Source: Candidatus Woesearchaeota archaeon (lineage in GTDB: Archaea > Nanobdellota > Nanobdellia > Woesearchaeales > 0-14-0-80-44-23). From it: a stretch of 64,000 nt of DNA. The notes beneath the pieces were generated by a model. The model did not search any database. It had not been told where the DNA came from and saw only the letters and a list, made by a program, of their open reading frames with translations. The translations under genes and the position numbers were made by a program. The stretch spans positions 13,028-77,027 of the forward strand of contig JAPLZQ010000103.1 in NCBI GenBank assembly GCA_026394965.1, in the 5' to 3' direction. Of this stretch, positions 18,052 to 49,916 are shown piece by piece (position 1 is the stretch's first letter; every line of letters begins with the position of its first letter).

Positions 18052-18176
18052 ACCCTGATTTTATGCTTTTATTTTTTTAATAAAACAAAATTGATAACGT
18101 CGAGAGGCAGACCGGTGAAAGCTTGTCTGCGCTGGAGAAACAGTTTTTGATTTCTCCTATATTAAAAAGGCAGGAT

Positions 18177-18296
18177 ATCATAAAAATCCGCTGAGAGCGT
18201 TTGATCGGACGCTCTCTTAATCGCGGATTTTTAGGATACAAAAAGGCGCTGTATCTCGCAACTAAAGTAATGAGTTTTAGCGCCTTTTTTGTATAA
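18177..18296. repeat. intergenic nested-palindrome element, copy A (full)
   Basis: ATCATAAAAATCCGCTGAGAGCG...CGCTCTC...GCGGATTTTTAGGATACAAAAAGGCGCT...AGCGCCTTTTTTGT. Outer IR AAAAATCCGC/GCGGATTTTT (18183-18192 / 18223-18232), inner IR GAGAGCG/CGCTCTC, and a second hairpin CAAAAAGGCGCT/AGCGCCTTTTTTG. The element recurs at 26307, 35110 and 50165. Confidence 0.5.
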
Positions 18297-18327
18297 TCTC
18301 TGCTGAAAAATGCGAGGAAGGACAAGA

Positions 18328-34084: not shown

Positions 34085-34531
34085 TTGTACAAAGATATGA
34101 GAAGTTTCAACAACTTGTTTAAGAAAAAAGTTATTGAAGAAAATAAAAACAACAGAGTTATTCCTTCTGGTATCACTTTTAAAATTATAGTAAATCCGTC
34201 GTTAAGTGAGGATCATCAAAAAGCGTTAAGATATGTTATCATCAAAAATTCTGGGTTAGATCAATATTTTAAAAATATTGATGTGACTTTTTATGATAGC
34301 TATAATGGGAATAATGTGAGCAATGATAAACTTAAGGGAAAACAAATGCTGGTTAAAGTTTTTTGCCCAGAACCCATTGTGAGTATAGAAAAAGATAAAG
34401 AAGACGAGTTCTATAAACAGCTAAAATCTAAAGTTACAGAATATATAATAAAAGCTATTCAAAAAAACACTGAAAAAAAATATAAAGCTAATTTAGAAGA
34501 ATTTCTATTTACATACAGATTAGAATTTTAA
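34085..34531 (+). CDS. hypothetical protein encoded in an AT-rich, compositionally atypical segment
   Basis: 148 aa. Strong AAT/TTA/AAA codon bias unlike the flanking genes, and no recognisable motif. Confidence 0.35.
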   Translation: MYKDMRSFNNLFKKKVIEENKNNRVIPSGITFKIIVNPSLSEDHQKALRYVIIKNSGLDQYFKNIDVTFYDSYNGNNVSNDKLKGKQMLVKVFCPEPIVSIEKDKEDEFYKQLKSKVTEYIIKAIQKNTEKKYKANLEEFLFTYRLEF

Positions 34532-34753
34532 ATACTTTATTTCTTAAAAAGTAATCTATAAAATAAAGAGGAGATAAACTAAATTTATTTTTCTGCGAGC
34601 TTGACCAATTCTGCGTAGAATCCCATTGAAGAGAAATACACTGCTGAAATAACAAAGCTGAGCGCGAAGTAAACAAATGAAAGATCAGAGCCTTCATCTG
34701 TTTTTAAAACAGAGGGGTTTTTGAAACACTTTACTCCGCAATTGGCGCATGCA

Positions 34754-34840
34754 GTGATTGAATCAATGTTGGGGCATGCAGCAATTGAATCAATGCTTTT
34801 TGGCATCTGGCCCTTCACTTCAGAAATTGAATCAATGCTT
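34754..34840. repeat. tandem array of three about 27 bp degenerate repeats, each centred on the palindrome ATTGAATCAAT
   Basis: Palindrome cores at 34757-34767, 34784-34794 and 34826-34836. The longer units GCATGCAG(T/C)(G/A)ATTGAATCAATG(C)TT(TTT)GG are repeated. They overlap weak ORFs on both strands (34585-34977 minus, 34721-34924 plus). Confidence 0.5.
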
Positions 34841-35325
34841 TTTGACGCACTGCCTTCCTGCCAAGAAATTCCAAGAGTCATAATTGAAGCAGCAGTGCGT
34901 GGAGAGATTTCATACTGCGGGTAAGTGTTCAGCCAGTCATGCTCTCTGTTTTCATTTCCCCATCTCATTTTTATCACTCGAAAAATTCTTTTAGATTTTT
35001 TCAGATACCCTAACTCCCTCGCTCTGATTTTGCAGGCATAGCCAGATTAAATAGAGAAGGATATTTTAATTTATCGGGAAAAAATAAAAAACGGCTTGGA
35101 AAAGAGAGAATTATCATAAAAATCCGCATAAACTTCAAAGTCCAAAGAATTACTGCATGGACTCGTTTTGAAAATATCCTGCCAATTTAAAAGCTATGAG
35201 GGATTAGTTACCATTATTTGATAGTGAAAAAACCGAAATATTTATAAACCCTTTCTGAATTGTTATCACTGCCAGTCAATAATAAACCGGCAATAATCTC
35301 ATTTAAAAGGATTGGGGGTAATAAC

Positions 35326-36837
35326 ATGTTAGGCATCGGACAGAAGGCGCAGGCAAGTAATTACCAGCAGCAGATAAGGGATATGGTTTCTTACATAAAT
35401 CAGCATTTCATAGCAGAGGCTCCAAAAGACATATACCTCAATGAATCGCAGGAGGGTATAGGCGGGCACACAAAAGGAGCCCTTCTTAAAGAGGCAATAG
35501 AGAGCGCAAAAAGCAAAAAGCCGATTTCAGAAAATATCCTTCCCATCACAACCACAATGCTTGCATTAAACTCTTGCATCGGAAACAACACCCTCATTTC
35601 AGGAGATGTTGGGACAGGAAAGACAAGGCTCGCAAGCGTAATAGGCTCAATGGTTTACCAAATCCCAGTTGAGATTTTTGACTGGAGAAAAATTGTCGGA
35701 AGCCCGGGAGCAACAGTCAATGACATTTATGCAACTCACGACATCGCTGAACTAAACAAGGGAATAGACATGGCATTTCTTTATCTCCCATTCCATATGC
35801 CTTACCTTATCATAGATGAACTCAACAGGTTCTCTGAACTTGAGCAGAACAGGATAAGAGAGGGCGTTGCAAATGATGTGTGGAACTATGCAAACCACTC
35901 ATGGAAGATAGACAAACAGGTTGTTGTATCAGCAATGAACCCCGATGTTTACGGAGGCACATTCTCCCTCAATGAAAATCTTGTGGACAACTACTCAATT
36001 CTCCTTTGGCCGCCAACATACAATCCAATAGCGCACCAGCATCTTGTAGAGCACGCCGATGAGAAGATAAAAGAGGGGCTGGGGCTTGAAGACAAGGTGG
36101 GCGAGTTTTTTGAATTCTACAAATCCCACAAGAACGATGCAAAAGCAATCAAAGATAAGATATCAGATCTTCAGCAGGCAACTGTCCAGGAATATGAAAG
36201 AAGGAAAATCCCGATAATCAAGAACGGATTTGTGTCAGAGATAAAAAAAGAGATTTCGGAAATAAGGTTTGCAGACGAGCCTCTTCTCTTCTTCTATTCA
36301 ACGCTTTCTGAGATATCCCAAAGCACAAAGTTCGGGGAAAACCGGTTTGAGGATCCAAGGTCAGATGACGAGCATGACAAGAGATACCTCTCAACAAAAG
36401 TGCTTAGGGGGCTTGCAGGAAGGTTCATGAAGGACTGGGAAATGATGTCAAAGGGGCTTGCATGGTACCTTGGAAGGGACAGAGTTACAGTTGAGGATGT
36501 GAAAACAGCATTTGTATTCACATCAGCAGCAAGGATAAACCCTGAAGAAAGATTCAAGCAGAAGGTATGGAACAGCCAAAGAAGCCTCCCCATAAGGCAC
36601 GCTATTGCAAAGCAGGTTATTGATGACTCATTCAAAAACTACACTGATTACACAAGCGCAGACAAGTCATTTGAGCATGTCAGAAAGGCAATACTCATGA
36701 TAACTGAGAATGAGCTTAATGCAGAAACAATCTCTGAAGCAAGAAAAGACCTGGAAATGAGCGACCATCCTGTTGCAAGGACAATTGAAGAAGCTCTCCT
36801 TTGCATGCAATATGAAAGCATGCAGAACAGAAAGTAA
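35326..36837 (+). CDS. MoxR-family AAA+ ATPase with a C-terminal extension of about 250 aa
   Basis: Walker A GDVGTGKT, Walker B LIIDELNRF (the MoxR-type DE(I/L)NR), sensor-1 VVSAMNP, and an ENLVDNYS segment in the position of the MoxR LDRF box. The likely start is the ATG at 35326, preceded by GGGGG. The ORF track starts at 35260. Confidence 0.7.
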   Translation: MLGIGQKAQASNYQQQIRDMVSYINQHFIAEAPKDIYLNESQEGIGGHTKGALLKEAIESAKSKKPISENILPITTTMLALNSCIGNNTLISGDVGTGKTRLASVIGSMVYQIPVEIFDWRKIVGSPGATVNDIYATHDIAELNKGIDMAFLYLPFHMPYLIIDELNRFSELEQNRIREGVANDVWNYANHSWKIDKQVVVSAMNPDVYGGTFSLNENLVDNYSILLWPPTYNPIAHQHLVEHADEKIKEGLGLEDKVGEFFEFYKSHKNDAKAIKDKISDLQQATVQEYERRKIPIIKNGFVSEIKKEISEIRFADEPLLFFYSTLSEISQSTKFGENRFEDPRSDDEHDKRYLSTKVLRGLAGRFMKDWEMMSKGLAWYLGRDRVTVEDVKTAFVFTSAARINPEERFKQKVWNSQRSLPIRHAIAKQVIDDSFKNYTDYTSADKSFEHVRKAILMITENELNAETISEARKDLEMSDHPVARTIEEALLCMQYESMQNRK

Positions 36838-36866
36838 GCGAATCACTTGGCTTGAGAATAAAAAAA

Positions 36867-38171
36867 ATGACTCTTTTTGACATGTCTGGAATAGAGAAAA
36901 GGGAAACAAAGGAAAACTCTCACGGATTAGAGGCGCTCCTCAATGCAGGAGACGCATTCTTCAATGAATTCGGGAGGTTATCCTGGAAAGAAATGATTGA
37001 CTTAATGAAAAAAAACAGAAATTATGCCAAAGAGTTCATAAAAGAAAAACTTAATGGGACAGAGTATTCTACAGAAGACATAGAGGACTATGTTATCATA
37101 AAAAGCGCAGAAGGAACAAGGAATTCAAGCTCCCTAAATTCAAATGTTCTTGGTGAATACTCGGGAAAAATTCTCAGCCTTCTCACAGAGGAAAATTCAA
37201 GTAAAGGAAAAAAAACAGTGATAAAAATTGACGGAAAAGGCGGGACTTTTGACCGTCTTTTTTACGGCGCAGAATTCTTTGATGAAGTATACATCTCAAA
37301 CATGAATGGAGAGGGAATATGCTCATCAATGGCGAACGGCAACATCCTTGCCCTAAACAACTGCAACGGGGGTAATACTGCAACATTCATCGGCGCAGGA
37401 AGCAACGGAGGCGTTAAGGCAGCAATACTGAACAATGCAAATAGCACGCACAATCTATTTTACGATGCTGCGTTTATAAACGGGCACATAGGGCTTGCCA
37501 TGCTCAACAACTCAACAGACAGTTACCATATAGAAATGGCCCTTTCTCTGATATACCCGGGAATAGAGCGGCTTGTAATACGAAACAAATTCAATCCCGA
37601 AAAATTCCAATTTGAAGATTTGCCTGTTGAGGATGGAAATGAAAATAAAGATTTCAAATTTTATGCTGATGAATATGCATTTGGAATAGAAAACGATTCA
37701 GAGATAATGGTTGCAAACAACGTCAGAAATAAAAGAGAATATGGCGGGCATCTATTCGGAAGGATGATTGAGCCAAACACTGAACTGCAGGAATTCCTGA
37801 AAAAAAACGGGATTGACAGAATGGCTGAGCTTTCAGACAAAATGGTGGATGCGGACTTAGACACTATTCAGGAAAATGCCAGAATGATTTACCATATTCA
37901 CAACGAAACTGCAACAAAAGAAATGCTCGAAGGAAGAGACAGATATTATCATACAATAAGACTTTTTGAAGAAATTGTTCCTGATGTTCTTGAAGAAATC
38001 CCCAGAAAACCAAAAGATGATTCAAATAATTATCCAAATCAGGAAAAAATCTATGAAAACGCCGGAGAAAAGATACAGAAGAAGGCAAGCAGGTGGATTA
38101 AAAACACATGGTATGACATAAGAGAAATATTTTTCATAAATCAGATAATGGACAAGATAAGGGGCAGATGA
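36867..38171 (+). CDS. paralog 1 of tandem GIEKREKKE-motif / Gly-Asn periodic-repeat family
   Basis: N-terminal MTLFDMSGIEKRETKE. Core KKTVIKIDGKGGTFDRLFYGAEFFDEVYISNMNGEGICSSMANGNILALNNCNGGNTATFIGAGSNGGVKAAILNNANS, then the C-terminal helix ELQEFLKKNGIDRMAELSDKMVDADLDTIQENARMIYHIHNE. The ORF track starts at a TTG at 36852. Confidence 0.6.
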   Translation: MTLFDMSGIEKRETKENSHGLEALLNAGDAFFNEFGRLSWKEMIDLMKKNRNYAKEFIKEKLNGTEYSTEDIEDYVIIKSAEGTRNSSSLNSNVLGEYSGKILSLLTEENSSKGKKTVIKIDGKGGTFDRLFYGAEFFDEVYISNMNGEGICSSMANGNILALNNCNGGNTATFIGAGSNGGVKAAILNNANSTHNLFYDAAFINGHIGLAMLNNSTDSYHIEMALSLIYPGIERLVIRNKFNPEKFQFEDLPVEDGNENKDFKFYADEYAFGIENDSEIMVANNVRNKREYGGHLFGRMIEPNTELQEFLKKNGIDRMAELSDKMVDADLDTIQENARMIYHIHNETATKEMLEGRDRYYHTIRLFEEIVPDVLEEIPRKPKDDSNNYPNQEKIYENAGEKIQKKASRWIKNTWYDIREIFFINQIMDKIRGR

Positions 38172-38186
38172 AATTCGGTGAAAAAA

Positions 38187-39566
38187 ATGGCATTCAGCGA
38201 TCTTACTGGAATAGAGAAAAGGGAGAAAAAGGAAATAATTTCTTCTGGATTAGAGATGCTTCTTCAGGCAGGAGACGCATTTCTAAACAAATTTTCCAGA
38301 CTATCAATTGAGGAACATGTGGATTTGGAAATGAACAACCACAGTTATGCTGAAGATTTTATAAAAGAAAAACTGAGAGGAGTTGAGTATTGCGCTGCAG
38401 ACATAGTGGACTATGTTATCATAAAAAGCAGGGAAAACGCACAGGAGCGCGGATATCTCGAGGAAGAAGATCTTGCCAGATATTCAGGGATAATTCTAAG
38501 CAGGCTTACAGAGAAAAATTCGAGGAAAGGAAAAAAAACAGTAATAAAAATTGACGGAAAAAATGGTACCTTTAACAATCTTTTTCGTGGAGCAGAATTC
38601 TTTGATGAGATATACATCTCCAACATGAACGGGGGATGGCTGTGCTCAGCAATGGCAAACGGCAATATTCTCGTGCTAAACAACTGCAGCAGCAACGGCG
38701 CTGCAGCATTCATAGGAATGGGAATGAACGGCGGAGTCAAGACAGCAATATTGAACAATGTAACCGAACCTTCATATAAATTAAGACAGGCATTTGGATC
38801 AGTCGATAAATCCGATAAATTTTTTAATATTGCAAATTTAGAGGGGCATGTCGGGCTTGCTATGATCAACAATTCGGCAAACGATGAGGTCATGCAGTCT
38901 TATGATATTGAAACGTTGCATTATCATTCAATCACACATTATTCAATAGCAGAACAGCTGGTAATACGCAACTTCCCTTATCAAAAAAACCCATTTAAAG
39001 AATGGCATCTTAAGAGAATAGGCGACTCTGCAAACTGCGGATTGTATTCTGAAAGCGGGGCGGTATTATTTTCTTACAACATATCCCCCTTACCAGTAAT
39101 CGACTGCTCGCAGGTAATTATTGAAAATAATTTCTATAATTTAGGATTATATACTAACCATCAATTCGGAGAAACAACAGACCCAACTGCTGAAATCCAG
39201 GAATTCCTGAGAAAAAACGGGATGGACAGAATCATTGCGCTTGCAGATGAAATGACTGAAGCAGACTTAGACACAATACAGAAAAACGCCAGACAGATTT
39301 ACCGGATTCACGAAGAAACCGCAACACCAAAAATGCTCAAAGGAAGAGAAAACTACTGTTTCTCAATGAGACGCTCCAAAGAAAATATTCCCGATGTTCT
39401 CGAAGAATTCAGTTCAAACATTCAGAATGGTTCAGATTCAGGAAAAATCTACGAAAGCGCTGAAGAAAAAATACAAAAGAAAAGAGACAGATGGATTAAA
39501 AACGCTCAGTATGACATAAAAAAGATGTCTTTCATAAAATGGGCAATAGACAAAATAAGAAGATAA
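38187..39566 (+). CDS. paralog 2 of tandem GIEKREKKE-motif family
   Basis: MAFSDLTGIEKREKKE..., the same core (KKTVIKIDGKNGTFNNLFRGAEFFDEIYISNMNGGWLCSAMANGNILVLNNCSSNGAAAFIGMGMNGGVKTAILNN), and C-terminal EIQEFLRKNGMDRIIALADEMTEADLDTIQKNARQIYRIHEE. About 45% identical to paralog 1. Confidence 0.6.
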   Translation: MAFSDLTGIEKREKKEIISSGLEMLLQAGDAFLNKFSRLSIEEHVDLEMNNHSYAEDFIKEKLRGVEYCAADIVDYVIIKSRENAQERGYLEEEDLARYSGIILSRLTEKNSRKGKKTVIKIDGKNGTFNNLFRGAEFFDEIYISNMNGGWLCSAMANGNILVLNNCSSNGAAAFIGMGMNGGVKTAILNNVTEPSYKLRQAFGSVDKSDKFFNIANLEGHVGLAMINNSANDEVMQSYDIETLHYHSITHYSIAEQLVIRNFPYQKNPFKEWHLKRIGDSANCGLYSESGAVLFSYNISPLPVIDCSQVIIENNFYNLGLYTNHQFGETTDPTAEIQEFLRKNGMDRIIALADEMTEADLDTIQKNARQIYRIHEETATPKMLKGRENYCFSMRRSKENIPDVLEEFSSNIQNGSDSGKIYESAEEKIQKKRDRWIKNAQYDIKKMSFIKWAIDKIRR

Positions 39567-39581
39567 AATTCGGTGAAAAAA

Positions 39582-41453
39582 ATGGCAGAAGACAAAAAGC
39601 AGGGCGCGGAAGACAAAAAGCTTGAGGAAATCATAAAGAAATGCTTTGAGGAGACAAAGGACCGGTATCTCAGACCTCCGATAAGCGGACCTCTGATAGT
39701 TGACTCTGAAATTGAAATGAACGGCTTGGGAACAGCATTTCTGAACTTCCTTGACTTATCCATTGGAATAAATGCCCCTTTTCTTAAAAAAATGGCAGGA
39801 TATGCCAATGGTGATATTGAAAAGATGGCAAAGGGAATTTTCACCCACGAAATCGGGCATTATATGTTTTTTCCCCAGAATGTAAGCCTTTCACTTTACC
39901 TCTCATATGAGGCAGAGGAGAATTTCAAGGAAAACAGCGCAATAATATACGCCCTTTTCGCTGACTATGTCAACAATTCTCTCATCTATTACCAGCAGGT
40001 TGAGGCAGAGAGTTTGAAAGGGCTACTTGCAAGCTCATATCTCGACAAAAAAAACAGGGCAACAAACAGCGCAATGGCCTTAAGCTACGGAAAAAGGATG
40101 AAAGAGGAATTCTCCGTTGACCTAAGCGGCTTTGAAGAGGAAACCATGAAAAAAATAATCAAGGCAGCAGACGAGATTGATTCAGTAACAGTTAGCATGA
40201 GCAGGAACTACAACCTGCAGTATTCCCAACTCCGAAGATTCGGAGAGGCAATACTTCCCCTTCTTAATATTGACAGGCAAAAAATGAAGGAGAATCAGAA
40301 GAATAACTGCGACAAAAATTGCCAAAACAACGGGGGGCAGGGTGAAAACCCTTGCAATTGCCCTTCTGGCGGGGGCTCAAGAATAATAACCAAGGAAGAT
40401 TTTGACAAGCTTCCCGCTGAAGATAAGCAGAAGATAAAGCAGGCAATAAGGGAAATGATAAAGCACATGGACAAGAAGAAATATGAAAAAATAAAGGAGC
40501 ATTTCCTTGGAAAAGAGAGCGCTAAGAAAGACAGGGCTCCTGGAATCGGAACAGGCATAGAAAATGTGGAATCTGCTGAAGATAAAACAACTGAGTACTA
40601 CAAGGAGCTTGCAGCAGAATACGGGATATTCATAAGGCCCAAGAAAACAAGAACCTTATCCTCAACAAAGCAGGTTTTCGGAAAAGAGGACTTCAAGATG
40701 GACAGCCCGCCGATAGGGATAGACACAAGATACTCCGGCGGAAAAATACTTCCGGGGCTTACAAAGAAAATCAGGATAGAGTCAATACCTTACCTAAAAA
40801 ACTCACAGTCGCTCCCTTCTCTCATAATATACAAGGACGCATCAGGAAGCATGCCTAATCCCCAGCAAGAGACATGCTATGCAACCCTTGCCGGAACAAT
40901 ATTCATAATGAGCTATTTTCGGAGCGGATGCAATGTGGGAGTTTCCCTGTTTGACTCGGAAATGACAGACATATTCAGAAGCGAGGATGAGGATGAGCTG
41001 ATAAAGATGATTTGCAGCTACAAGGGCGGCGGAACATCAATTGATTTGGACAGGTTAAAAAAAGACATAGCAGAATCAAAATCAGAGATTCCAATAGACC
41101 TGAAGAAAATAAATGAGGAAGAAATCAGGAAAAACCCGCTTTTCAGGAAATACCTGAACAAAAACGGAAGGATAAGCCTTCAGGAGCTCACAAGCCAGAG
41201 CTATGTTGACCTGATGATAATAACAGACGGCGGAATCATGAATGTTGATGAGCTGATTGACTTCATGAAAAACAACGAGAAATACCGCCCTACAATAATA
41301 CACACCGGCACATTCCAGCTAGATATACCGGGATATGACCAGCAGCACACCTGCTCTTATGGGGGAATAACCGTGTTCAAGGCGGACTCAAAAGAGGACC
41401 TTGTGAGAATATCGCAGGACATAATTGAAAAGAACCTTATTTCAGGCAACTAA
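39582..41453 (+). CDS. von Willebrand factor A (vWA) domain protein with complete MIDAS, fused to an N-terminal HExxH zincin-like region and a Cys-rich linker
   Basis: C-terminal vWA with MIDAS residues all present: DASGS in IIYKDASGSM, the Thr in KGGGTS, and the Asp in LMIITDGG. The N-terminal region contains FTHEIGHYMFF (HExxH). The linker is CDKNCQNNGGQGENPCNCPSGGG. The start ATG at 39582 shares the upstream 22 bp AAATTCGGTGAAAAAAATGGCA with paralog 2. Confidence 0.65.
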   Translation: MAEDKKQGAEDKKLEEIIKKCFEETKDRYLRPPISGPLIVDSEIEMNGLGTAFLNFLDLSIGINAPFLKKMAGYANGDIEKMAKGIFTHEIGHYMFFPQNVSLSLYLSYEAEENFKENSAIIYALFADYVNNSLIYYQQVEAESLKGLLASSYLDKKNRATNSAMALSYGKRMKEEFSVDLSGFEEETMKKIIKAADEIDSVTVSMSRNYNLQYSQLRRFGEAILPLLNIDRQKMKENQKNNCDKNCQNNGGQGENPCNCPSGGGSRIITKEDFDKLPAEDKQKIKQAIREMIKHMDKKKYEKIKEHFLGKESAKKDRAPGIGTGIENVESAEDKTTEYYKELAAEYGIFIRPKKTRTLSSTKQVFGKEDFKMDSPPIGIDTRYSGGKILPGLTKKIRIESIPYLKNSQSLPSLIIYKDASGSMPNPQQETCYATLAGTIFIMSYFRSGCNVGVSLFDSEMTDIFRSEDEDELIKMICSYKGGGTSIDLDRLKKDIAESKSEIPIDLKKINEEEIRKNPLFRKYLNKNGRISLQELTSQSYVDLMIITDGGIMNVDELIDFMKNNEKYRPTIIHTGTFQLDIPGYDQQHTCSYGGITVFKADSKEDLVRISQDIIEKNLISGN

Positions 41454-41482
41454 AAGCAATAGGGGTGATGGGGAAGTGAAAA

Positions 41483-42394
41483 ATGCCAATAGAAGAACTA
41501 TCAAAAGTGGAGAAGAGGGAAACAATAGAGCACAAAAGCACCGCAGAGGAATTCATAAAAAAATGCGGGGAAGCAACAGAAGAGATAAGCGCATTATGCG
41601 CCCAGAAGAAAAACCGCGGTTTTCAAATTGACACAATACGCGACGTATACACCCCGATGGACCGGCTTCTTGAAAAAAGCCTTTCAGAGCTCGACTATTC
41701 GGCAGCGGACATTGAAACATTCATAAGTTCAGAGTACCATCGAGAAATTGCAGACGCAAAAAGATTGCCGCTGGGAGTCTGCACCAGAATAACACTGGAA
41801 ACCCTCACAAAAAAAAACAGGGCAAAAGGAGAAAAAACAGTAATAAAAATTGACGGCAGCTGGAATGAATTTAACTACTTATTTTTCGGCATACAAAACT
41901 TTGACGAGATATACCTCTCAAACATGAAAGGAGAGAGAATACTCTCAGTATCTGATGGAGGCAAGTGCGGAACAGCTGTCCTAAACAATATTGAAGGAAG
42001 CGGTTTGTGCTCATACCTTGATTACAACATTGGTTCACTTGATAATCTAATCTGCAATATGTCTAAGACGTTTTATTTTAAGGATATGCACCGGTCTAAA
42101 CCAAGAAATATTGGCTTTGCCCTGTTAAGCGATTGCATGGTAAATTCTGATGATCAATTCAACTGCTGCTATTTCAGAGAAATTTTGGGAGAAAAAGAAC
42201 CAATTAAGGAAGACAAGGAAAAATATGAGATTATCCTTGAGCTTGCAGCAAAGATGACTGACTCACCAATAGATGAAATAGAAAACCTTAGCCGGCAGAT
42301 AATACAAATCTATCGCTCAGATAAAGAGGATGAGAATATCATAGAGAAAACCAGCAAAACAGGATATGCCCATTTCAAATGGCTTAAGAGATGA
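41483..42394 (+). CDS. paralog 3 of tandem GIEKREKKE-motif family (short, divergent)
   Basis: MPIEELSKVEKRETIEHKS..., core KTVIKIDGSWNEFNYLFFGIQNFDEIYLSNMKGERILSVSDGGKCGTAVLNNIEGSG. The repeat region is truncated. 303 aa. Confidence 0.55.
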   Translation: MPIEELSKVEKRETIEHKSTAEEFIKKCGEATEEISALCAQKKNRGFQIDTIRDVYTPMDRLLEKSLSELDYSAADIETFISSEYHREIADAKRLPLGVCTRITLETLTKKNRAKGEKTVIKIDGSWNEFNYLFFGIQNFDEIYLSNMKGERILSVSDGGKCGTAVLNNIEGSGLCSYLDYNIGSLDNLICNMSKTFYFKDMHRSKPRNIGFALLSDCMVNSDDQFNCCYFREILGEKEPIKEDKEKYEIILELAAKMTDSPIDEIENLSRQIIQIYRSDKEDENIIEKTSKTGYAHFKWLKR

Positions 42395-42429
42395 AAAAAA
42401 TCAAAAAGAAGTGATAAGGAAAACAAAAA

Positions 42430-43323
42430 ATGCCGCTAAACGAGCTTACCGGAATAGAGAAAAGGAATAAAAAGGAAAAGGGAGAGGACAGGACTGAATA
42501 TTTCACAAGAATCAGCAACGGAATAGTCAAAAGCATGCTCAAAGAGTTCGTGAGAATGAGAAAAAGAATCCTTGTCAAGTTCATTGAGGAAACAGATGAG
42601 GAAAGAAAGGAATTTGTCAAAAACGCTATTGGAAGCTTTGAATACAATGAGAGGGATTTGGAAGGGTTGATACAGGCAAAAATTGAAGATGAGAACAAAT
42701 CGCCAATGCTCGGTTACTATACAGGAATTCTTCTGGAAATGCTTACTGAAAGGAACAGAAAAAAGGGAATTGAGACAACTGTCAGGATTGACGGATGCGG
42801 AAGGGACTTTCCCTACCTTTTCATGGGAGCAAGAAACTTTGACAATGTCTACATCTCCAACATAACCGGAGATAAAATACTTTCAAATTCGCTTGATGGA
42901 GGAAGGGGAAAGACAGCGGTTATAAGCGGGCTTAAGGGAGATTCTGCAGCATACTGGATGGCGCGCAAGGGAATGCTTGACCTGCTTGTGATAAATGATT
43001 CTATCGGCGAATTCACTGCAGCAGGAATCGCTGAAGGAGGCTGCATAAAAAGGGTGGTTCTAAGGAACATTACAAGCGACACTGGTTTAACACTTGAATT
43101 CGCGAAAATGAACAACGGCAAAATCCCAGAACTGATTTATGATGCAAAACCGGGAATGTTATCCGGCATAGGCGATTATATCACTATGAAATTCGGGCGC
43201 GTTCCAAGAAGGAGGGGCTCCCTTGAATGCGCAGCCAAGATGAGCGGCGCATCAGTTTATGACATAGAGAAATACGCAAATGAGATAAACAGCCTGTTCA
43301 GAGAAAAAAATGCCACTAAATGA
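42430..43323 (+). CDS. paralog 4 of tandem GIEKREKKE-motif family
   Basis: MPLNELTGIEKRNKKEKGE..., core ETTVRIDGCGRDFPYLFMGARNFDNVYISNITGDKILSNSLDGGRGKTAVISGLKGDSAAYW... 297 aa. Confidence 0.55.
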   Translation: MPLNELTGIEKRNKKEKGEDRTEYFTRISNGIVKSMLKEFVRMRKRILVKFIEETDEERKEFVKNAIGSFEYNERDLEGLIQAKIEDENKSPMLGYYTGILLEMLTERNRKKGIETTVRIDGCGRDFPYLFMGARNFDNVYISNITGDKILSNSLDGGRGKTAVISGLKGDSAAYWMARKGMLDLLVINDSIGEFTAAGIAEGGCIKRVVLRNITSDTGLTLEFAKMNNGKIPELIYDAKPGMLSGIGDYITMKFGRVPRRRGSLECAAKMSGASVYDIEKYANEINSLFREKNATK

Positions 43324-44428
43324 GCTTATTGGAATAGAGAAACGGGAGAAAAATGATAACCCAGAGAGCCAACTTGAAAAGCTGCTTGAAATCGGGGAGG
43401 ATGTTGTAAAAAAATTCGGGAAAAGCGAGCTTGCGGACAGAATTACATATGACAACCGGTTTGAGCCGATTTCAAAATTAAGGGAGAAGATAGAAATCTA
43501 CTGCATGAGAAGCATTGAAAACATTGAATACACAGAAAAGGACATAGAGTCATTTGTGAACGGCAGATTGGGCGTCTCACGGGATACTGGTGAGCAGGTA
43601 ACCATAGGAACTTATTCTGGAATCATTTTGGACATATTAACCATGAAAAACCGGGAAAAGGCAAAAGGAACAAGAATAGCGATTGATGGGAAAGGCGAAG
43701 AGTTTGACTATCTGTTTTCCTGTGCGAAAAACTTTGATGAGGTTTATGTCTCAAACATAAAAGGAGACTACATCTGCACATATGCGGGGGCAGAAGGATA
43801 TGGAAAGATGATAGTCCTGAATGATATTAAAGGCGACTACATTGGAAAATCAATTGCTGCATTGCGCGGAAATGTTGAGATTGCAGTTATAAATCGCGCA
43901 GAAGGATTAGGAACCGGGCATGAAATCGCCTCATACCACGGGAATGCTGGATTAATTATTGTAAACAATGCGATTGGAAGGGAAACATTGATGGACGTGG
44001 CTGTTGAAGGCGGAAGCATAGGGCTCGCTTTGATAAACAAGGCAATTGGCGATTATACTGCCTGGTGCGCAGCTTATGATTCAGGGAGCATTGGGGACCT
44101 CGTAATAACAAACTCAAAAACCAAATCAGAAAAAGGATTTGATATTGATGTAACCAGGATAAAAAACATCCTCCTGAAAATGAATAAATTCAACTTCTCA
44201 AACAAAACTGGCAAAGGAATGCTTATTGGAAACAATGAAGATATGGAAAAGAGTTTCAATGAAGATTACCGAATAAATGAATTATCAGATGCTGTTAAAA
44301 AAATCGTAAAGAAAAAAGAAATTGAAGGGATTATAAAACAGGCAGGAAAGATACAGTCAATATATGAAACCATAAAAGAGAGAGTTGAAGGAGACCTGGC
44401 ATGGATAAAGGAGCATTCGGAGATTTAG
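43310..44428 (+). CDS. paralog 5 of tandem GIEKREKKE-motif family
   Basis: MPLNELIGIEKREKNDNPE. Its first 36 nt are nearly identical to the paralog 4 start. Core TRIAIDGKGEEFDYLFSCAKNFDEVYVSNIKGDYICTYAGAEGYGKMIVLNDIKGDYIGKSIAALRGNVEIAVINRAEGLGTGHEIASYHGNAGLIIVNNAIGRETLMDVAVEGGSIGLALINKAIGDYTAW. 372 aa. Overlaps the paralog 4 stop. Confidence 0.6.
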   Translation: MPLNELIGIEKREKNDNPESQLEKLLEIGEDVVKKFGKSELADRITYDNRFEPISKLREKIEIYCMRSIENIEYTEKDIESFVNGRLGVSRDTGEQVTIGTYSGIILDILTMKNREKAKGTRIAIDGKGEEFDYLFSCAKNFDEVYVSNIKGDYICTYAGAEGYGKMIVLNDIKGDYIGKSIAALRGNVEIAVINRAEGLGTGHEIASYHGNAGLIIVNNAIGRETLMDVAVEGGSIGLALINKAIGDYTAWCAAYDSGSIGDLVITNSKTKSEKGFDIDVTRIKNILLKMNKFNFSNKTGKGMLIGNNEDMEKSFNEDYRINELSDAVKKIVKKKEIEGIIKQAGKIQSIYETIKERVEGDLAWIKEHSEI

Positions 44429-45321
44429 ACGCAATAGAGAAGCGGGAGAAGAAGGAATACCCGCACACACTTGAAGCGCTGATAGAGGCAGAAGAGAAAA
44501 TAAAACCAAAAATCCTGGGGAGATACCCGTCCTATCCAAGAGAGACAGACAAGTATCTTGATGTGCTTTCCCTTGCTGGAGAAGCCCTCAAAAAAACTGA
44601 TTACACGGAAAAAGACATAGAAAACTTTGTGCTTTCCCAATCAGGAAGCGGGGAAAATGAAAGCGAGGAAATGTTTATTGGGATTTACGCGGGAGCAATT
44701 GTGGAAAACCTTGGAAGGAGAAAAGGCAGGAAAAAAACAATAATTGCAATTGACGGAAAGGGAAGGAAATTCAACTACCTCTTCCACTGCATAAGGAATT
44801 TCGGGGAGATATACCTCTCAAACTTCAACGGCACATACATATGCCACAATGCAGCAAGCTACGGAAAGGGCGAAATCCTTGTGCTCAACAGAGTTAAAGG
44901 AAATGGAAACGGCGGATATGCCGGCTCAAAGGGAAAAATAGGGCTTGCAATACTTAATGAAACAGGCGCTGTAAATGAATTCACAATTCTCAGGCAGATG
45001 ATAAATTTCGGGTACAATGAAAAATTCAACATAGAACGCTTTGTGATAAAGGAAAAAAATGTCAAGCTTAGCAAAATGGCGCAGGTTTTCAAAAGGGAAA
45101 TTGAAGTTCCTGAACTGCTTGAGGTTTACAAACTGTCAGAAGAAACAATAAACGGAAACAAACCAGGCAGTTTATACGAAACTACAAGAGTCCAGAAAAT
45201 CAAAATCAAGAGTAAGGAAAAAAAAGAGATAAACAGTTTAACAGAAGAGATGGAAAGCGCAGAAATCGGAGAAATGGCAGATATTGCAAAACGCATAAGG
45301 GAGCTGTGCTATGAACAATAG
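44401..45321 (+). CDS. paralog 6 of tandem GIEKREKKE-motif family
   Basis: MDKGAFGDLDAIEKREKKEYPHTLEALIEAEE..., core KKTIIAIDGKGRKFNYLFHCIRNFGEIYLSNFNGTYICHNAASYGKGEILVLNRVKGNGNGGYAGSKGKIGLAILNETG. 306 aa. Confidence 0.55.
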   Translation: MDKGAFGDLDAIEKREKKEYPHTLEALIEAEEKIKPKILGRYPSYPRETDKYLDVLSLAGEALKKTDYTEKDIENFVLSQSGSGENESEEMFIGIYAGAIVENLGRRKGRKKTIIAIDGKGRKFNYLFHCIRNFGEIYLSNFNGTYICHNAASYGKGEILVLNRVKGNGNGGYAGSKGKIGLAILNETGAVNEFTILRQMINFGYNEKFNIERFVIKEKNVKLSKMAQVFKREIEVPELLEVYKLSEETINGNKPGSLYETTRVQKIKIKSKEKKEINSLTEEMESAEIGEMADIAKRIRELCYEQ

Positions 45322-46417
45322 AAAAACGCCTTTTGATGAAATGTCAGGAATAGAGAAAAGGGAGAAGAAGGAATATTCGCACACACTTGAAGCCCTAATT
45401 GAAGAATCTGGACATTCTGTAAAGAGGATGCTTTCAATGATGATAAAAGCAATGGCTTGGAATGACCTTAGCGGAATGTACATTCACGCATTTCATGAAG
45501 CATCAGAAGAACTTGAAGGGGTTGAATACAACGAAAGAGACCTGTCTGACTTCATAACAGCAAACAGTGGAATTCCAATGGAAAGCGATGAAGAATGCGC
45601 TCTTGGAGTATACTCTGGGATACTGCTTGACCTGCTTACAAGAAGGAGAAGAAAAGAGGGGAAGAAGTCAGTTGTAAAGATTGAAGGCGCAGGAAAGGAA
45701 TTCCATTATCTCTTTTATTATGCAAAAAACTTTGATGAGGTTTACATATCAAACATTGAAGGCGACAAAATCTGCTCAAGGATGGGAAGCCACAGCGGAA
45801 GCGGAAATTTCATAGTGCTTAACAATGTGAATGGAAATTTCATCGCAGACACAGTAGGATACAGCAGCGGAAAAGTGAATATGGTTGTGATAAACAATTC
45901 TCGCGGAATAATGGCTGGAAACAGCATTGCTGAACGCGGAAGCGCTGGATTAATAGTCCTGAACAGCATAAATGCTGCAGGAGATATAGGATGCGCAATT
46001 GCAAAAGAGGGGGAAGCCGGAACAGTCATATTAAACAATCTTAACGGAGACAGGATAGGAGATTACTGCGGAAGCGCTAAAGGAAAAATCGGGAATATTG
46101 CATACCTGTCAATAAAAGCAAAAGAATCAGTCGGCGAATTTGTGCCTGATTATGAGAGCGAAATCGGGAAGATGATAATACTGGACAGCCATGTTAAAAA
46201 TCGCAATGTTGGGGCGGAATTCAGCGGATTCGGCAGATCTGAAATAATAACTGAACAGGAAAATGAAAAAGCAGAAAGGGCGCTGGAAGAAACAGGGATT
46301 AAAGAAATAATCCTGCTTGCAGATGAAATGGGAAAATTTGGCGCTGAAAGATATGAGGAATACGCTCATAAGATTTATTGCTCATACAAAATGGCAGGTG
46401 GAAAATATGCCTTTTGA
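45311..46417 (+). CDS. paralog 7 of tandem GIEKREKKE-motif family
   Basis: ...FDEMSGIEKREKKEYSHTLEALIEESG, where the N-terminus is near-identical to paralog 6 at the nucleotide level. Core KKSVVKIEGAGKEFHYLFYYAKNFDEVYISNIEGDKICSRMGSHSGSGNFIVLNNVNGNFIADTVGYSSGKVNMVVINNSRGIMAGNSIAERGSAGLIVLNSINAAGDIGCAIAKEGEAGTVILNNLNGDRIGDYCGSAKGKIGNIAYL. 368 aa. Confidence 0.6.
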   Translation: MNNRKTPFDEMSGIEKREKKEYSHTLEALIEESGHSVKRMLSMMIKAMAWNDLSGMYIHAFHEASEELEGVEYNERDLSDFITANSGIPMESDEECALGVYSGILLDLLTRRRRKEGKKSVVKIEGAGKEFHYLFYYAKNFDEVYISNIEGDKICSRMGSHSGSGNFIVLNNVNGNFIADTVGYSSGKVNMVVINNSRGIMAGNSIAERGSAGLIVLNSINAAGDIGCAIAKEGEAGTVILNNLNGDRIGDYCGSAKGKIGNIAYLSIKAKESVGEFVPDYESEIGKMIILDSHVKNRNVGAEFSGFGRSEIITEQENEKAERALEETGIKEIILLADEMGKFGAERYEEYAHKIYCSYKMAGGKYAF

Positions 46418-47480
46418 TGAGCTTTCGGGAATAGAGCTGAGAGAAAAAGCAGGGCAGGATAAAAATGCTCTTGAAAAAATCCTTGAAATCTGCGATTATC
46501 TTTGCAGAAACACTTCAGAGGTATACCGCTACCTTTTCGACACCATGAACTCTGATTCAGAATTCTATTCACATGTGCGCTCCTTCGCTCTCTCAAAAAC
46601 CAGGAATATTGATTTCAATGAAAAAGACATTTGTGACTTCATTATTGCAAAATCCTATGAAAAGCAGGAAAAGGAAGGGGTAATAGGGCTTTTTTCAGGA
46701 GTTCTCCTTGACATACTTACAGAAAGAAACAGGAAGCAAAAAAAGAAGACGATAATCAAGATTGACGGCAAAGGCGCAAAATTCAGCTACCTGTTCTACG
46801 GCGCAAGAAACTTTGACGAGATATACCTTTCAAACTTCAACGGCAGATACATCTGCGCAAAGATAGGGAGCGAAGGGAGAGGCGGGATAGCTGCGCTTTC
46901 CAGAATTGACGGAAGCTACACAGGAGAATCGGCAGGGGCATTCTCTGGAGGAATAGATGCGCTGATTGTAAACTCGGCAACTGACAATGAGCTCTGCTCA
47001 AAAATTGGTTTTTCCGGGGGAAAAGCAGGATTAGTGCTGATAAGCAATTCAAAAGCATTTCTTGCAGGAAGCTCAATTGCAAGAGATGGCTCTGCAGGCA
47101 TGATTGTCCTTAACCAGATAATTTCAGAGCACATTGGCGATTACATAGGAGAAGGAGGGCATGTTAAAAAGCTTGCAATGAACAGCCTGTCGGGCTCCTA
47201 TGTTGGCAGAAACATCGGGACAAATAATGGAGAGGTAAGCGAGATAGCGCTCAGGGATATAAAAGCGAGCTATGTTTTTTCATCAGCAAATTTTGAAAGG
47301 ACAAGGAGCCTCATCAGGTACAATGATAATGAAGCTGAAATCTATTTCAGGAAAAACCGCATTGACAGAATCATCTCGCTTTCAGAGGATATTGATTTGG
47401 CAGATGATATTGATGAACTGGAAAGGATATCAAAAAAGATTTATCGGGAATACAGAAAAGGGATGAAAAATGGGGCTTGA
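46407..47480 (+). CDS. paralog 8 of tandem GIEKREKKE-motif family
   Basis: MPFDELSGIELREKAGQDK..., core KKTIIKIDGKGAKFSYLFYGARNFDEIYLSNFNGRYICAKIGSEGRGGIAALSRIDGSYTGESAGAFSGGIDALIVNSATDNELCSKIGFSGGKAGLVLISNSKAFLAGSSIARDGSAGMIVLNQIISEHIGDYIGEGGHVKKLAMNSLSGSYVGRNIG. The ORF track begins upstream at 46317. Confidence 0.6.
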   Translation: MPFDELSGIELREKAGQDKNALEKILEICDYLCRNTSEVYRYLFDTMNSDSEFYSHVRSFALSKTRNIDFNEKDICDFIIAKSYEKQEKEGVIGLFSGVLLDILTERNRKQKKKTIIKIDGKGAKFSYLFYGARNFDEIYLSNFNGRYICAKIGSEGRGGIAALSRIDGSYTGESAGAFSGGIDALIVNSATDNELCSKIGFSGGKAGLVLISNSKAFLAGSSIARDGSAGMIVLNQIISEHIGDYIGEGGHVKKLAMNSLSGSYVGRNIGTNNGEVSEIALRDIKASYVFSSANFERTRSLIRYNDNEAEIYFRKNRIDRIISLSEDIDLADDIDELERISKKIYREYRKGMKNGA

Positions 47481-48549
47481 AGAGCTTTCGGAAATAGAAA
47501 AGAGAAAACCCAGCATCGCAAATAAAAGCGGGCTTGATGCGGTAATATCTGGAATGGAAGAATGCGTGAGCAGGGTAAAGACAATGATGATTCTTCCTTT
47601 TCCACTCTATTCCATACAAAAGGTCTATGAGATAGCAGAGAAAAGGCTGGAATCAGCAGATTATTCTGAAGATGAGATAATTGACTGCATAATTGCAGGC
47701 AGGAAATATGAAGATTATGGGAACAAGGCAATAGCAGGCGCATACACAGGAGCTCTCCTCAGCATCCTTACTGAAAGAAACAGTAAAAAAGGCAGGAAAA
47801 CAATAATGTATGTTGATGAAAAATGCAGCGGGTTTGACTATCTGTTCTACAATGCAAGAAGCTTTGATGAGGTTTACCTGAATAATTTCAACGGCGATTA
47901 TGCATGCTATGGAATGGAAAACGGAAGAAGGGCAGTTGTTAACAATTCGCATGGAGACACAATGTTCTGGGACATTGCATCTGGAAAAATTGAAAAAAGA
48001 GACAATGCGCATCCAAATGCGGAAATGATACTTATTAACAATTACCAGCCAAATGTTTATTTCAATACTGAGATAGGCTCTTTTGCAGGAGCATACGGGG
48101 GCTCAATAGGGCTTTTCCTTGCAAACAGCTGCTGCAGCTGGCAGACAGGAAGGGACATTGCCTACAGCGAGGGCTTTGCAGACACGGTAATACTCAACAA
48201 GACAAAAGGGGATGAAATCGGGAATGGAATTGCATGCAACAGAGGAAGGGTGAATAATCTTCTCATAATCGGAGGAAGCCAGAATTTTGTAGGAAATGAC
48301 ATTGCTCAGGTAGGCGGCTCTGTCGGAAACCTTCTTGTGCAGGGAAAGAAAGGAAAGGTGATGTGCGGGGCTAACTTTTACCGGGTTGAAAGGCAGATAA
48401 GCAGGAGCAGGAACAAGAGAAGGTTCATGGAAAAAAGGGGAATACCAAAGATTCTTGCATTAGCCGAGCAGATGAAAACAGCTGGAAAAGATGAGATTAT
48501 CATGCTCTCTGAGCAAATCTGGCAGGAATACACAGAAAACAGAAAATGA
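47470..48549 (+). CDS. paralog 9 of tandem GIEKREKKE-motif family (most divergent)
   Basis: MGLEELSEIEKRKPSIANKS..., core RKTIMYVDEKCSGFDYLFYNARSFDEVYLNNFNGDYACYGMENGRRAVVNNSHGDT..., then Gly-rich repeats and C-terminal GIPKILALAEQMKTAGKDEIIMLSEQIWQEY. 359 aa. Confidence 0.55.
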   Translation: MGLEELSEIEKRKPSIANKSGLDAVISGMEECVSRVKTMMILPFPLYSIQKVYEIAEKRLESADYSEDEIIDCIIAGRKYEDYGNKAIAGAYTGALLSILTERNSKKGRKTIMYVDEKCSGFDYLFYNARSFDEVYLNNFNGDYACYGMENGRRAVVNNSHGDTMFWDIASGKIEKRDNAHPNAEMILINNYQPNVYFNTEIGSFAGAYGGSIGLFLANSCCSWQTGRDIAYSEGFADTVILNKTKGDEIGNGIACNRGRVNNLLIIGGSQNFVGNDIAQVGGSVGNLLVQGKKGKVMCGANFYRVERQISRSRNKRRFMEKRGIPKILALAEQMKTAGKDEIIMLSEQIWQEYTENRK

Positions 48550-48611: not shown

Positions 48612-49226
48612 ATGATTAAAGCAGTTGCTTTTGACCTGGGAGGAGTGTTGTTCTCATGCGGAACACCTATTGCAGTTGAAAGAATCTCTAAAAAGCACGG
48701 CTATGAAAAGAATCTCATAAGCGACCTGCTATCCTCTGAAAAGAGCATAAAGTTAAGAAAGGGGAAGATGAGCGATAATGCATTTTGGAAATGGGCTGAA
48801 AAAACCCTGCCTGCGGGATACAATGTTGCGACAATCAAGAGGGAATGGTATGACTGCTACATCATAGACGGAGAGGTATTTCAGCTGATAAAAGAGCTCT
48901 TCATGAACAAAAGAATAAATCTTCTTGTTTTCTCTGGAAACATACGCTCAAGGGTGCTTTATCTTAACAAGAAATACGGCTTCCGGAAGTACTTTGACCA
49001 TGAGGTATACTCATTTGACCACGGCTGCATGAAGGGCAGCAAAGAGTTTGTGAAGAAACTCATATCCGAGGCAGGATGCAAACCGCCTGAAATCCTTTAC
49101 ATTGATGATAATCCAATCCAGGCGAAGCCTGCTTCTATGATGGGAATAAACCTTCTCATATACAAAAAGGGAAAAATTGAAGAACTTAAGGAAGGGATAA
49201 AAAGATTCGGGATAGCGCTGAGATAA
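48612..49226 (+). CDS. HAD-superfamily hydrolase
   Basis: MIKAVAFDLGGVLF is HAD motif I (DxG/D). FSGN is motif II-like, and IDDNP with a downstream Lys gives motifs III/IV. The ORF track starts at 48588. Confidence 0.55.
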   Translation: MIKAVAFDLGGVLFSCGTPIAVERISKKHGYEKNLISDLLSSEKSIKLRKGKMSDNAFWKWAEKTLPAGYNVATIKREWYDCYIIDGEVFQLIKELFMNKRINLLVFSGNIRSRVLYLNKKYGFRKYFDHEVYSFDHGCMKGSKEFVKKLISEAGCKPPEILYIDDNPIQAKPASMMGINLLIYKKGKIEELKEGIKRFGIALR

Positions 49227-49280: not shown

Positions 49281-49355
49281 GGGTCCATTGCCTAGCCTGG
49301 ATAAGGCGACAGCCTTCTAAGCTGTAGATCGGGGGTTCAAATCCCCCTGGACTCA
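49281..49355 (+). tRNA. tRNA-Arg (anticodon UCU)
   Basis: GGGUCCAUUGCCUAGCCUGGAUAAGGCGACAGCCUUCUAAGCUGUAGAUCGGGGGUUCAAAUCCCCCUGGACUCA. The acceptor GGGUCCA/UGGACUC pairs, the anticodon stem ACAGC/GCUGU with loop CUUCUAA gives anticodon UCU, and the T-arm is GGGGGUUCAAAUCCCCC. Confidence 0.8.
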
Positions 49356-49451
49356 CTTATTATTTATAATTTATTTTTAATTTCTAAATTATTCAGTCGT
49401 TTCTTTTTCCATCCATGCTTTTTCTTATTAAAGAAAAAGGATGGGTGCGCT

Positions 49452-49467
49452 AATCCCCCTGGACTCA
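49452..49467 (+). repeat. 16 bp direct repeat of the tRNA-Arg 3' end (AATCCCCCTGGACTCA), att-site-like scar
   Basis: An exact copy of tRNA positions 49340-49355 lies 97 bp downstream. It is preceded by a hairpin CTTTTTC-CATCCATG...TTATTAAAGAAAAAGGATGG. Confidence 0.6.
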
Positions 49468-49544
49468 TTTTTCTTAATTTATCATATTAACTTTTAGAAA
49501 TAATAAGATTTAATAATTAAGAAAAAAAAATCAGAGAGAATTTC

Positions 49545-49916
49545 TTATTCTTTCTCCCCGAGGAAAGAGTATTCCCCCTTTCGGTTCACGATGAGCCTTA
49601 TGCAGGGAAGGAAAATGAGCTCGTCAAAGATGTCCTTTTCTGCAGCCCCTTTTATGGCATAGTAAGAGGCATTGTACTGGACAACACCGATTGCAGTCTG
49701 GTTGTTCTTGTGAAGCCGCTCAAGCTCTATAATCTGCTCAGTCTCCCCTATCTCAGCATATCCTGGCTGGGATTTCTGCTCAGGGAAAGACACATCCTCT
49801 ACTTCCAAATATTCAGAGCTCCTGTCTCCAACAAGATATGCAACGCCTATGTTGCTATCGAATCTTCTTGAGAGCTTTCGCACAATCATGTCTATTGCAG
49901 ACTTGTCAATTTCCAT
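49545..49916 (-). CDS. hypothetical protein
   Basis: 123 aa, no recognisable motif. The N-terminal half (DMIVRKLSRRFDSNIGVAYLVGD) is vaguely MPN/Mov34-like but has no JAMM His motif. Confidence 0.3.
   Translation of the reverse strand: MEIDKSAIDMIVRKLSRRFDSNIGVAYLVGDRSSEYLEVEDVSFPEQKSQPGYAEIGETEQIIELERLHKNNQTAIGVVQYNASYYAIKGAAEKDIFDELIFLPCIRLIVNRKGEYSFLGEKE

Follow-up and report, generated by a model that had tools for sequence, protein, structure and literature searches.

The gene for tRNA-Arg(UCU) in the analysed DNA, a stretch of 64,000 nucleotides, which we call the window, from a metagenome-assembled Candidatus Woesearchaeota genome, is followed after a short interval by an exact copy of its own 3′ end. 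The locus is probably the pair of attachment sites, attL and attR, that remained after a mobile element had integrated site-specifically into this tRNA gene, in its 3′ part, and had then been almost wholly lost. An integration scar in a tRNA gene is an ordinary, well-known kind of event. Here the repeat is exact, the locus carries an insertion compared with empty sites in relatives, a homologous arm adjoins the core at an independent occupied site, and empty and occupied sites coexist within one population.

An exact copy of the tRNA-Arg(UCU) 3′ end

ARAGORN called a tRNA-Arg(tct) gene at 49281-49356, and Rfam RF00005 (tRNA) matched 49281-49355 with 64.6 bits over the full model (1-71). From the sequence, the 5′ strand of the T-stem was assigned to 49331-49335, the T-loop TTCAAAT to 49336-49342, the 3′ strand of the T-stem to 49343-49347, the 3′ strand of the acceptor stem to 49348-49354 and the discriminator A to 49355. 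The repeat, AATCCCCCTGGACTCA, spans tRNA positions 58-73, that is from T-loop position 58 through the 3′ strands of T-stem and acceptor stem to the discriminator A73. Its two copies are identical at 16/16 positions and are the only ones in the 64-kb window even when up to 2 mismatches are allowed; the chance expectation is 0.06, and two matches were obtained in 0/100 shuffles. The sequence-only reading had recognized both the gene and the exact 16-bp copy and had described the repeat as the 3′ half of the T-arm plus the acceptor 3′ strand and discriminator, which is borne out by ARAGORN, Rfam, the exact matches at both sites and the assignment of positions. Its distance of 97 bp has to be corrected to 96 bp (49356-49451), the copies starting 112 bp apart. 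That reading had also considered that the 16-mer might be a generic repeat; a third copy is absent from the window, and IMG/VR contains chance matches only. An assembly error is an unlikely source of the repeat, because assembler k-mers are longer than 16 bp and because the same arm-core junction is found in an independent metagenome contig of a relative, L006. The features of the locus are the following, with L006, L007 and L008 denoting contigs of relatives:

49281..49355, plus strand: tRNA-Arg(UCU), intact (ARAGORN; Rfam RF00005; identical to the L008 tRNA, 2 differences from that of L007)
49340..49355, plus strand: core copy 1, the presumed attL core, AATCCCCCTGGACTCA (exact match; tRNA positions 58-73)
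49356..49394, plus strand: AT-rich 39-bp segment adjoining attL, presumed left end of the element (from the sequence)
49395..49451, plus strand: 57-bp arm adjoining attR, presumed right end of the element (homologous to core-joined DNA in L006)
49410..49447, plus strand: imperfect hairpin in the arm (7 bp, G/G mismatch, 9 bp, loop ATTA)
49443..49459, plus strand: degenerate T-arm-like GGGTG-CGCTAAT-CCCCC (28-nt similarity to the real T-arm, 82%)
49452..49467, plus strand: core copy 2, the presumed attR core and displaced original 3′ end of the tRNA gene (exact match)
49468..49544, plus strand: host flank from attR to the ORF123 stop (orthologous to the flank directly after the tRNA in empty-site relatives)
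49545-49916, minus strand: ORF123, 123 aa (100% identical to MCX6710246.1, locus tag NTV63_04850, of an 84-kb contig)

The locus would accordingly be read in the order attL, left end of 39 bp, right arm of 57 bp, attR and native flank. Upstream of the core the two copies show a weak in-register likeness, 28 nt at 82% (GGGGGTTCAAAT... versus GGGTGCGCTAAT...), and copy 2 therefore sits in a degenerate T-arm, with GGGTG-CGCTAAT-CCCCC in place of the GGGGG-TTCAAAT-CCCCC of the real tRNA-Arg. This segment (49443-49459) is probably the core-binding symmetry that a recombinase would recognize in the attachment site of the element, for which it is our candidate.

Empty sites in related genomes

A search of 5.8 billion proteins yielded only four homologues of ORF123. 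Contigs L006-L009 were obtained through these homologues and L047-L056, ten contigs from ten JGI samples, through a cluster mate (P0086) of the L006 ORF123. The order tRNA-Cys/ORF123/tRNA-Arg is common to 13 contigs of three lineages, namely L007, L008/L009 (L009 being a duplicate of the L008 lineage) and L047-L056, and those among them that reach tRNA-Arg have a single copy of the core, i.e. an empty site, in 12/12 cases. The gene order is tRNA-Cys, ORF123, tRNA-Arg and PRPP synthase in L007 and ORF123, tRNA-Arg and HAD in L008, whose contig starts within the tRNA-Cys gene and whose HAD C-terminus is 88% identical to that of the window over 66 amino-acid residues. In both contigs tRNA-Arg, with its single core, is directly followed by 61-88 nt of AT-rich flank and then by the ORF123 stop, so that the window differs from them by a 112-bp insertion. 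In the third lineage, PRPP synthase is accompanied by an intact tRNA-Arg(tct), the flank, ORF123 and tRNA-Cys in all ten contigs (10/10); each has a single core and lacks the arm. Beyond copy 2, the window flank (49468-49544) is similar to the L008 flank (z 2.8, p 0.016) and shows 74% ungapped identity to that of L006. The uninterrupted site, with a single core and the matching distal flank, is thus seen in L007, L008 and L047-L056. Together with the occupied site in L006 and its homologous arm, these single-core sites in three lineages uphold the duplication of attL and attR by integration that had been proposed from the sequence alone.

Genes on the 3′ side of the scar are housekeeping genes, among them those for GlmM, GlmS, a GlmU-like protein, a GCD14 methyltransferase and a Ski2-type helicase. 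On the 5′ side, the HAD hydrolase adjoining the tRNA gene (48612-49226) has best full-length homologues of about 50% identity, and the few homologues with a source name are mostly bacterial, including the candidate-phyla-radiation groups CPR3 and Saccharimonadales, which suggests a possible inter-domain transfer. Compared with genome contigs, the HAD protein of the window found only distant bacterial homologues, and at about 50% identity these homologues were useless for synteny. Close relatives of the window organism were not found in the protein collection: the clusters of 10 window proteins that were checked were singletons with two exceptions, one leading to a 1.7-kb contig and the other to a 35-aa protein on a 990-bp contig.

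Further upstream, about 14.5 kb of the window (34085-48549) consists of ORFs without a Pfam or PHROG match, all on the plus strand except 34585-34977 (minus). It contains at least five tandem paralogues of 306-387 aa with a common N-terminal GIEKREK-type motif (43310-48549), and its GC content falls to 0.31 at 34-35 kb. At the corresponding position, between the small ORF after TopoVI-A and tRNA-Arg, L048 and L050 have only PRPP synthase, which makes the block, 5′ of the tRNA gene, a variable region specific to the lineage. As a candidate for the missing island, the 13-kb block upstream of the tRNA gene that has no Pfam or PHROG match was rejected, since it lies on the tRNA 5′ side and since L008 has the HAD gene beside the tRNA without a scar.

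The tRNA genes themselves showed some peculiarities. The tRNA-Arg(TCT) genes of L007 (1402-1476) and L047-L056 carry C at position 33, where U is nearly universal, with the anticodon loop CCTCTAA versus CTTCTAA in the window and L008. A third tRNA of the window (2316-2413, minus strand; Rfam 48.2 bits, 98 nt) was missed by ARAGORN and presumably contains an intron.

An occupied site in the population of L006

L006 (IMG sample 3300069122) is 97.4-98% identical to L047-L056 over L006 1-2954. Its ORF123 is not accompanied by tRNA-Arg; instead, TAGTCGTTTCTTTTCCATCAACGCTTTTCTGAAAGAAAAGGGTTGTTCAACT-ATCCCCCTGGACTCA occupies the orthologous position, and the host flank comes next. The homology to L047-L056 ends inside the T-arm (GTTCAA[CT]ATCCCCCTGGACTCA in L006 versus GTTCAA-ATCCCCC... 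in the tRNA), and foreign DNA replaces the 5′ part of tRNA-Arg from the T-arm on. Beyond the unit of arm and core, the first 67 nt of the L006 flank match the DNA that follows the intact tRNA in L047-L056 (ATTATAATTCTTATC in this population), until a first substitution and a small indel interrupt the match. The junction falls exactly where attR is expected. To its left lie an arm of 51 nt, a structured module of about 145 nt and a radical-SAM ORF truncated after its N-terminal third, and all three are absent at the corresponding position in L047-L056. No close homologue of the truncated radical-SAM fragment was found, and the contig ends 430 bp past the junction, short of any full element or integrase. 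One population thus holds both the empty site (10 contigs) and the occupied site (1 contig).

Arm and core of the window (49395-49467) and of L006 (2932-2997) are identical at 58/65 ungapped positions (89%), the host DNA around the unit being 73-79% identical between the two. In L006, GGGTTG-TTCAACTAT-CCCCC stands at the place that corresponds to the degenerate T-arm. The DNA between the repeats of the window is foreign and recurs at independent integrations, its arm being homologous to that of L006 and missing from the ten close relatives of L006. Because these close relatives are without the arm, the copies in the window and in L006 can be regarded as independent insertions by related elements and not as the product of shared ancestry; insertions of this kind would leave a core that is perfect in both copies and a T-loop-like part that differs.

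Considering these data, it is highly improbable that copy 2 marks the 3′ terminus of a pseudo-tRNA, a decayed tandem duplicate of tRNA-Arg, or that of a gene for a split-tRNA 3′ fragment. At this site the L006 population is polymorphic, with the unit standing in place of the 5′ portion of the tRNA, which makes it a junction, and the first 46-59 nt of the tRNA bear no similarity to the 5′ portion of the unit (p 0.31-0.47), even though the unit has nearly the length of the tRNA (73-74 versus 75 nt), contains a degenerate T-arm before the core and begins with AGTC, which could be a relic of the acceptor strand. Tandem duplication was excluded by alignment against shuffles, in which neither the 5′ parts (p 0.31-0.47) nor the downstream flanks (p 0.8) were alike. 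A split tRNA is contradicted by the complete tRNA-Arg next to it and by the lack of a leader complement in the window at up to 3 mismatches. Furthermore, no tRNA or credible Rfam family was detected in 49350-49560 at E values up to 10, and ARAGORN gave no call there. The possibility that the downstream copy belongs to another tRNA or tRNA-half gene, raised by the sequence-only reading, therefore found no support in ARAGORN, Rfam or the search of the window for a leader complement.

Split tRNA 3′-half genes occur in Nanoarchaeota. The likeness to our locus is that a tRNA 3′ fragment follows a structured leader in a DPANN archaeon. In contrast to the split genes, the fragment comprises only 16 nt (58-73), the leader is self-complementary and no 5′ partner was found in the window; moreover, a complete tRNA-Arg adjoins, and the unit is missing from close relatives.

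The structured module beside the arm of L006 is a non-coding sequence with two hairpins that also occurs elsewhere. Copies of about 125 nt, AAAAATCCGC...GCGGATTTTT and then AAAAAGGCGC...GCGCCTTTTTTGTATAA, are located at 18176-18297 in the window, 3005-3143 in L006, 7776-8030 in L048 and 6443-6697 in L050, and these represent three loci: upstream of rpS15, upstream of TopoVI-B and beside the L006 att arm. In the window the module lies between rpL44e (17743-18051) and rpS15 (18310-18783), and the region containing it (18085-18310) folds with a z score of -6.2; in L006 it abuts the truncated radical-SAM ORF. Between genomes it is 94-97% identical, the adjoining DNA only 73-79%. Its ends are imperfect inverted repeats (ATCATAAAAA / TTTTTTGTATAAT), and it matched no Rfam family. 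It may be a MITE-like element or else a conserved promoter/terminator cassette. Nested within the module are near-perfect palindromic insertions of 19-30 nt, one in L006 (3095-3120), five in L048 (7810-7990) and also some in L050, with short TAC/GTA repeats on both sides in those read in detail. A palindrome common to L006 and L048 carries a compensatory change (CCGCAC...GTGCGG versus CCGGAC...GTCCGG). By analogy, these insertions are reminiscent of REP-like or IS200/IS605-associated palindromic elements.

The 96 bp between the cores

The 39-bp segment next to attL contains a TATA-like TTTATAA (49363-49369) and a T5 run (49374-49378), which would end the tRNA transcript. It has no significant similarity to the flanks downstream of the tRNA in L006, L007 and L008 or to the flank after copy 2. 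The 57-bp arm begins with AGTCGTTTCTTTT, is followed by ATCCCCCTGGACTCA and has no second copy in the window. Its hairpin (inverted repeat I10) is 88% complementary, and the 73-nt unit of arm and core folds with -21.3 kcal/mol (z -3.4). The units of the window and L006 fold alike, with AGUC/GACU pairing in a closing helix of 4 bp and a G/G mismatch in the central hairpin, although the L006 unit, at z -1.3, folds no better than shuffles. In the lower stem of the hairpin, two pairs have undergone compensatory changes between window and L006, T-A to C-G and C-G to A-T.

The homology between window and L006 starts at AGTCG, where the 39-bp segment joins in the window and within 3-4 nt of which the module ends in L006. 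Two independent random truncations are not expected to agree so closely. The shared boundary and the maintained hairpin suggest that the arm may be a discrete functional part of the attachment site, for instance a putative binding region for the recombinase or an accessory protein. A stronger version, in which arm and core together form a discrete functional module, either the complete P arm of a 112-bp att-only element that could be mobilized in trans or a transcript of about 70 nt that mimics tRNA-Arg, is rather unlikely; we consider it because of the AGTCG boundary in two copies, the compensatory changes in a hairpin that keeps its G/G mismatch and the terminal complementarity AGTC/GACT.

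Taken by itself, the first variant, that the 112-bp unit (39 plus 57 bp and one core) is a complete, self-contained miniature element made up of nothing but an attachment site, a cis-mobilizable unit whose integration and excision would depend on the integrase of an autonomous relative acting in trans, appears unlikely. Both element ends are kept and the cores are still 16/16 identical; the 5′ boundary of the arm coincides in window and L006, as it should for a functional P arm, and the hairpin has been preserved by compensatory changes. Upstream of the L006 arm, however, at least 430 bp of other DNA take the place of tRNA-Arg and the 39-bp segment, and the unit was not found again in the window, in metagenome contigs or in IMG/VR. 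A circle of 112 bp is also sterically implausible as a recombination substrate.

We regard it as very unlikely that 49395-49467 encodes a small RNA (about 66-73 nt) that mimics tRNA-Arg at its 3′ end and is transcribed from the TATA-like box at 49363-49369. The unit is missing from 12/12 related contigs covering the site, including ten that are 97-98% identical to L006, and is therefore dispensable and recently acquired. The length is near that of a tRNA, TTTATAA lies about 28 nt upstream of AGTCG in the window, and the fold of closing helix and hairpin is common to both units, with a z score of -3.4 in the window and two compensatory pairs; in L006, on the other hand, the fold is not better than shuffles (z -1.3), AGTCG is separated from the TATA-like box by no more than about 10 nt, and there is no T-run after the unit. 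The window copy has two internal T5 runs (49404-49408 and 49419-49423), and T5 runs are efficient termination signals in archaea. Rfam (at E up to 10, tRNA included) and ARAGORN remained silent.

Search for an integrase, a full element and a free form

None of the 58 window ORFs of at least 90 aa contains an integrase domain according to Pfam profiles, in agreement with the sequence-only reading, and the unannotated block at 34-48.5 kb has no PHROG match. The 96 bp between the cores leave no room for an integrase gene. With neither an integrase in the window nor room for one between the cores, the window copy can be no more than a remnant and is not an autonomous element. The remnant left after loss of an element, which had been regarded as most likely from the sequence alone, agrees with the 96 bp that are left, and these would have arisen by internal deletion of a larger element.

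Searches of IMG/VR for a free or viral form with the 16-mer, a 15-mer or the arm gave only chance matches, mostly to one conserved high-GC phage gene, and by BLASTN the segment 49330-49480 matched nothing in phage and plasmid collections. The attP reconstructed from the locus reads GGATGGGTGCGCT-AATCCCCCTGGACTCA-CTTATTATTTATAATTT; an attP-like sequence of arm and core was absent from IMG/VR and from the phage and plasmid collections. The unit pattern AGTCGTTTC-N30-60-TCCCCCTGGACTCA had 0 matches in metagenome contigs. A 25-mer of T-arm and acceptor strand found one unrelated tRNA with an insertion in these contigs, in L010. This 95-nt tRNA gene (744-838) has the T-arm and acceptor 3′ strand of the window tRNA-Arg, its D region is enlarged by an insertion of about 20 nt, and its assignment as Val(tac) by ARAGORN looks doubtful.

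Two further candidates were rejected. An Int(N) fragment of the SSV type is not supported, since the only ORF running through copy 2 is a minus-strand frame of 34 aa that is not conserved in L006. Neither does the core represent the primer-binding site of a retroelement, as no TGG, the complement of CCA, precedes the core complement.

Comparison with known systems

In thaumarchaea, the att sites of integrated elements measure 17 bp in the median, and the elements are located mostly in the 3′-distal region of tRNA genes (PMC6563490). As in those elements, the repeat found here is the 3′-distal part of a tRNA gene and the tRNA is intact at one junction; the core of 16 bp compared with the median of 17 bp is within the normal range, and empty and occupied sites were likewise told apart through relatives (PMC6563490). 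In contrast to them, our locus has only 96 bp between the repeats, has neither integrase nor cargo and belongs to a DPANN host.

The target-site duplications of casposons measure 14-15 bp and sometimes lie at tRNA 3′ ends. In its length the 16-bp repeat resembles these (PMC6563490), but a target-site duplication by a transposon-like element such as a casposon or MITE is extremely improbable. Terminal inverted repeats are missing from the 96 bp (left end CTTATTATTTATAA versus AGCGCACCCATCC as the reverse complement of the right end), Pfam detected no Cas1 or transposase in the window, and the degenerate T-arm before copy 2 is expected of a junction derived from attP instead.

Integration of the SSV type into archaeal tRNA genes partitions the integrase gene (PMC7253208). 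It resembles the present case in the archaeal host, the tRNA gene as target and the tRNA-fragment repeats left behind, and it differs in that attP lies inside the int ORF and Int(N) and Int(C) flank the element, whereas copy 2 of the window is crossed only by the 34-aa minus-strand frame.

The CIMEs of Streptococcus thermophilus are att-flanked deletion derivatives of integrative and conjugative elements that lack an integrase. Our locus shares with them the flanking attL and attR, the missing recombination genes and a presumed origin by internal deletion. CIMEs differ in that they comprise kilobases and have been shown to be mobilized in trans; here the insertion is 96 bp and its mobility putative.

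In 2002, Williams reportedly found that integrases targeting tRNA genes exploit the symmetry of the stems and that the T-loop sublocation is used by many of them. The core of the window starts in the T-loop and the T-stem is degenerate on the element side, which matches the T-loop sublocation. This is one of the recognized sublocations of integrases in tRNA genes (bioRxiv 10.1101/2020.11.02.365908).

A full-text literature search on elements with integrases directed at tRNA genes in Woesearchaeota, judged by title and abstract, yielded nothing related. The locus would thus be the first trace of a tRNA-integrating element in Woesearchaeota that this search could find.

A model for the formation of the scar

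We infer that the window copy is a near-complete deletion derivative of a family of integrative elements targeting tRNA-Arg(UCU). In our model an integrase, most likely a tyrosine recombinase, would bring together two sites, attB, which is the T-arm of the tRNA gene, and attP, a T-arm-like sequence of the element (GGGTG-CGCTAAT-CCCCC and then TGGACTCA), with strand exchange within the T-loop or just 3′ of it; the crossover is predicted at T-loop positions 57-59. The element would supply the replacement for tRNA positions 58-73, leaving the tRNA whole at attL, so that positions 1-57 of the present gene would stem from the host and positions 58-73 from the element. The original 3′ end of the tRNA gene would have been pushed to the far junction (attR, 49452-49467) together with the native flank and ORF123. 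Of the element itself, 96 bp would be left, 39 bp by attL and the hairpin-bearing arm of 57 bp by attR. The window copy would be an inert scar without an integrase that could at most be excised by a related integrase in trans; alternatively, slippage between the 16-bp repeats might remove it and restore an empty site of the L008 type.

Implications

Woesearchaeota are a DPANN lineage with a very poorly known mobilome. With the core (tRNA-Arg(UCU) positions 58-73) and the conserved arm of 51-57 bp, it becomes possible to search these archaea for an otherwise unseen family of integrative elements. The pair of L006 and L047-L056 shows recent activity of this family in a natural population. Furthermore, tRNA-Arg stands out at this locus as a hotspot of recombination in these genomes, its upstream neighbour being HAD in some lineages but PRPP synthase in others.
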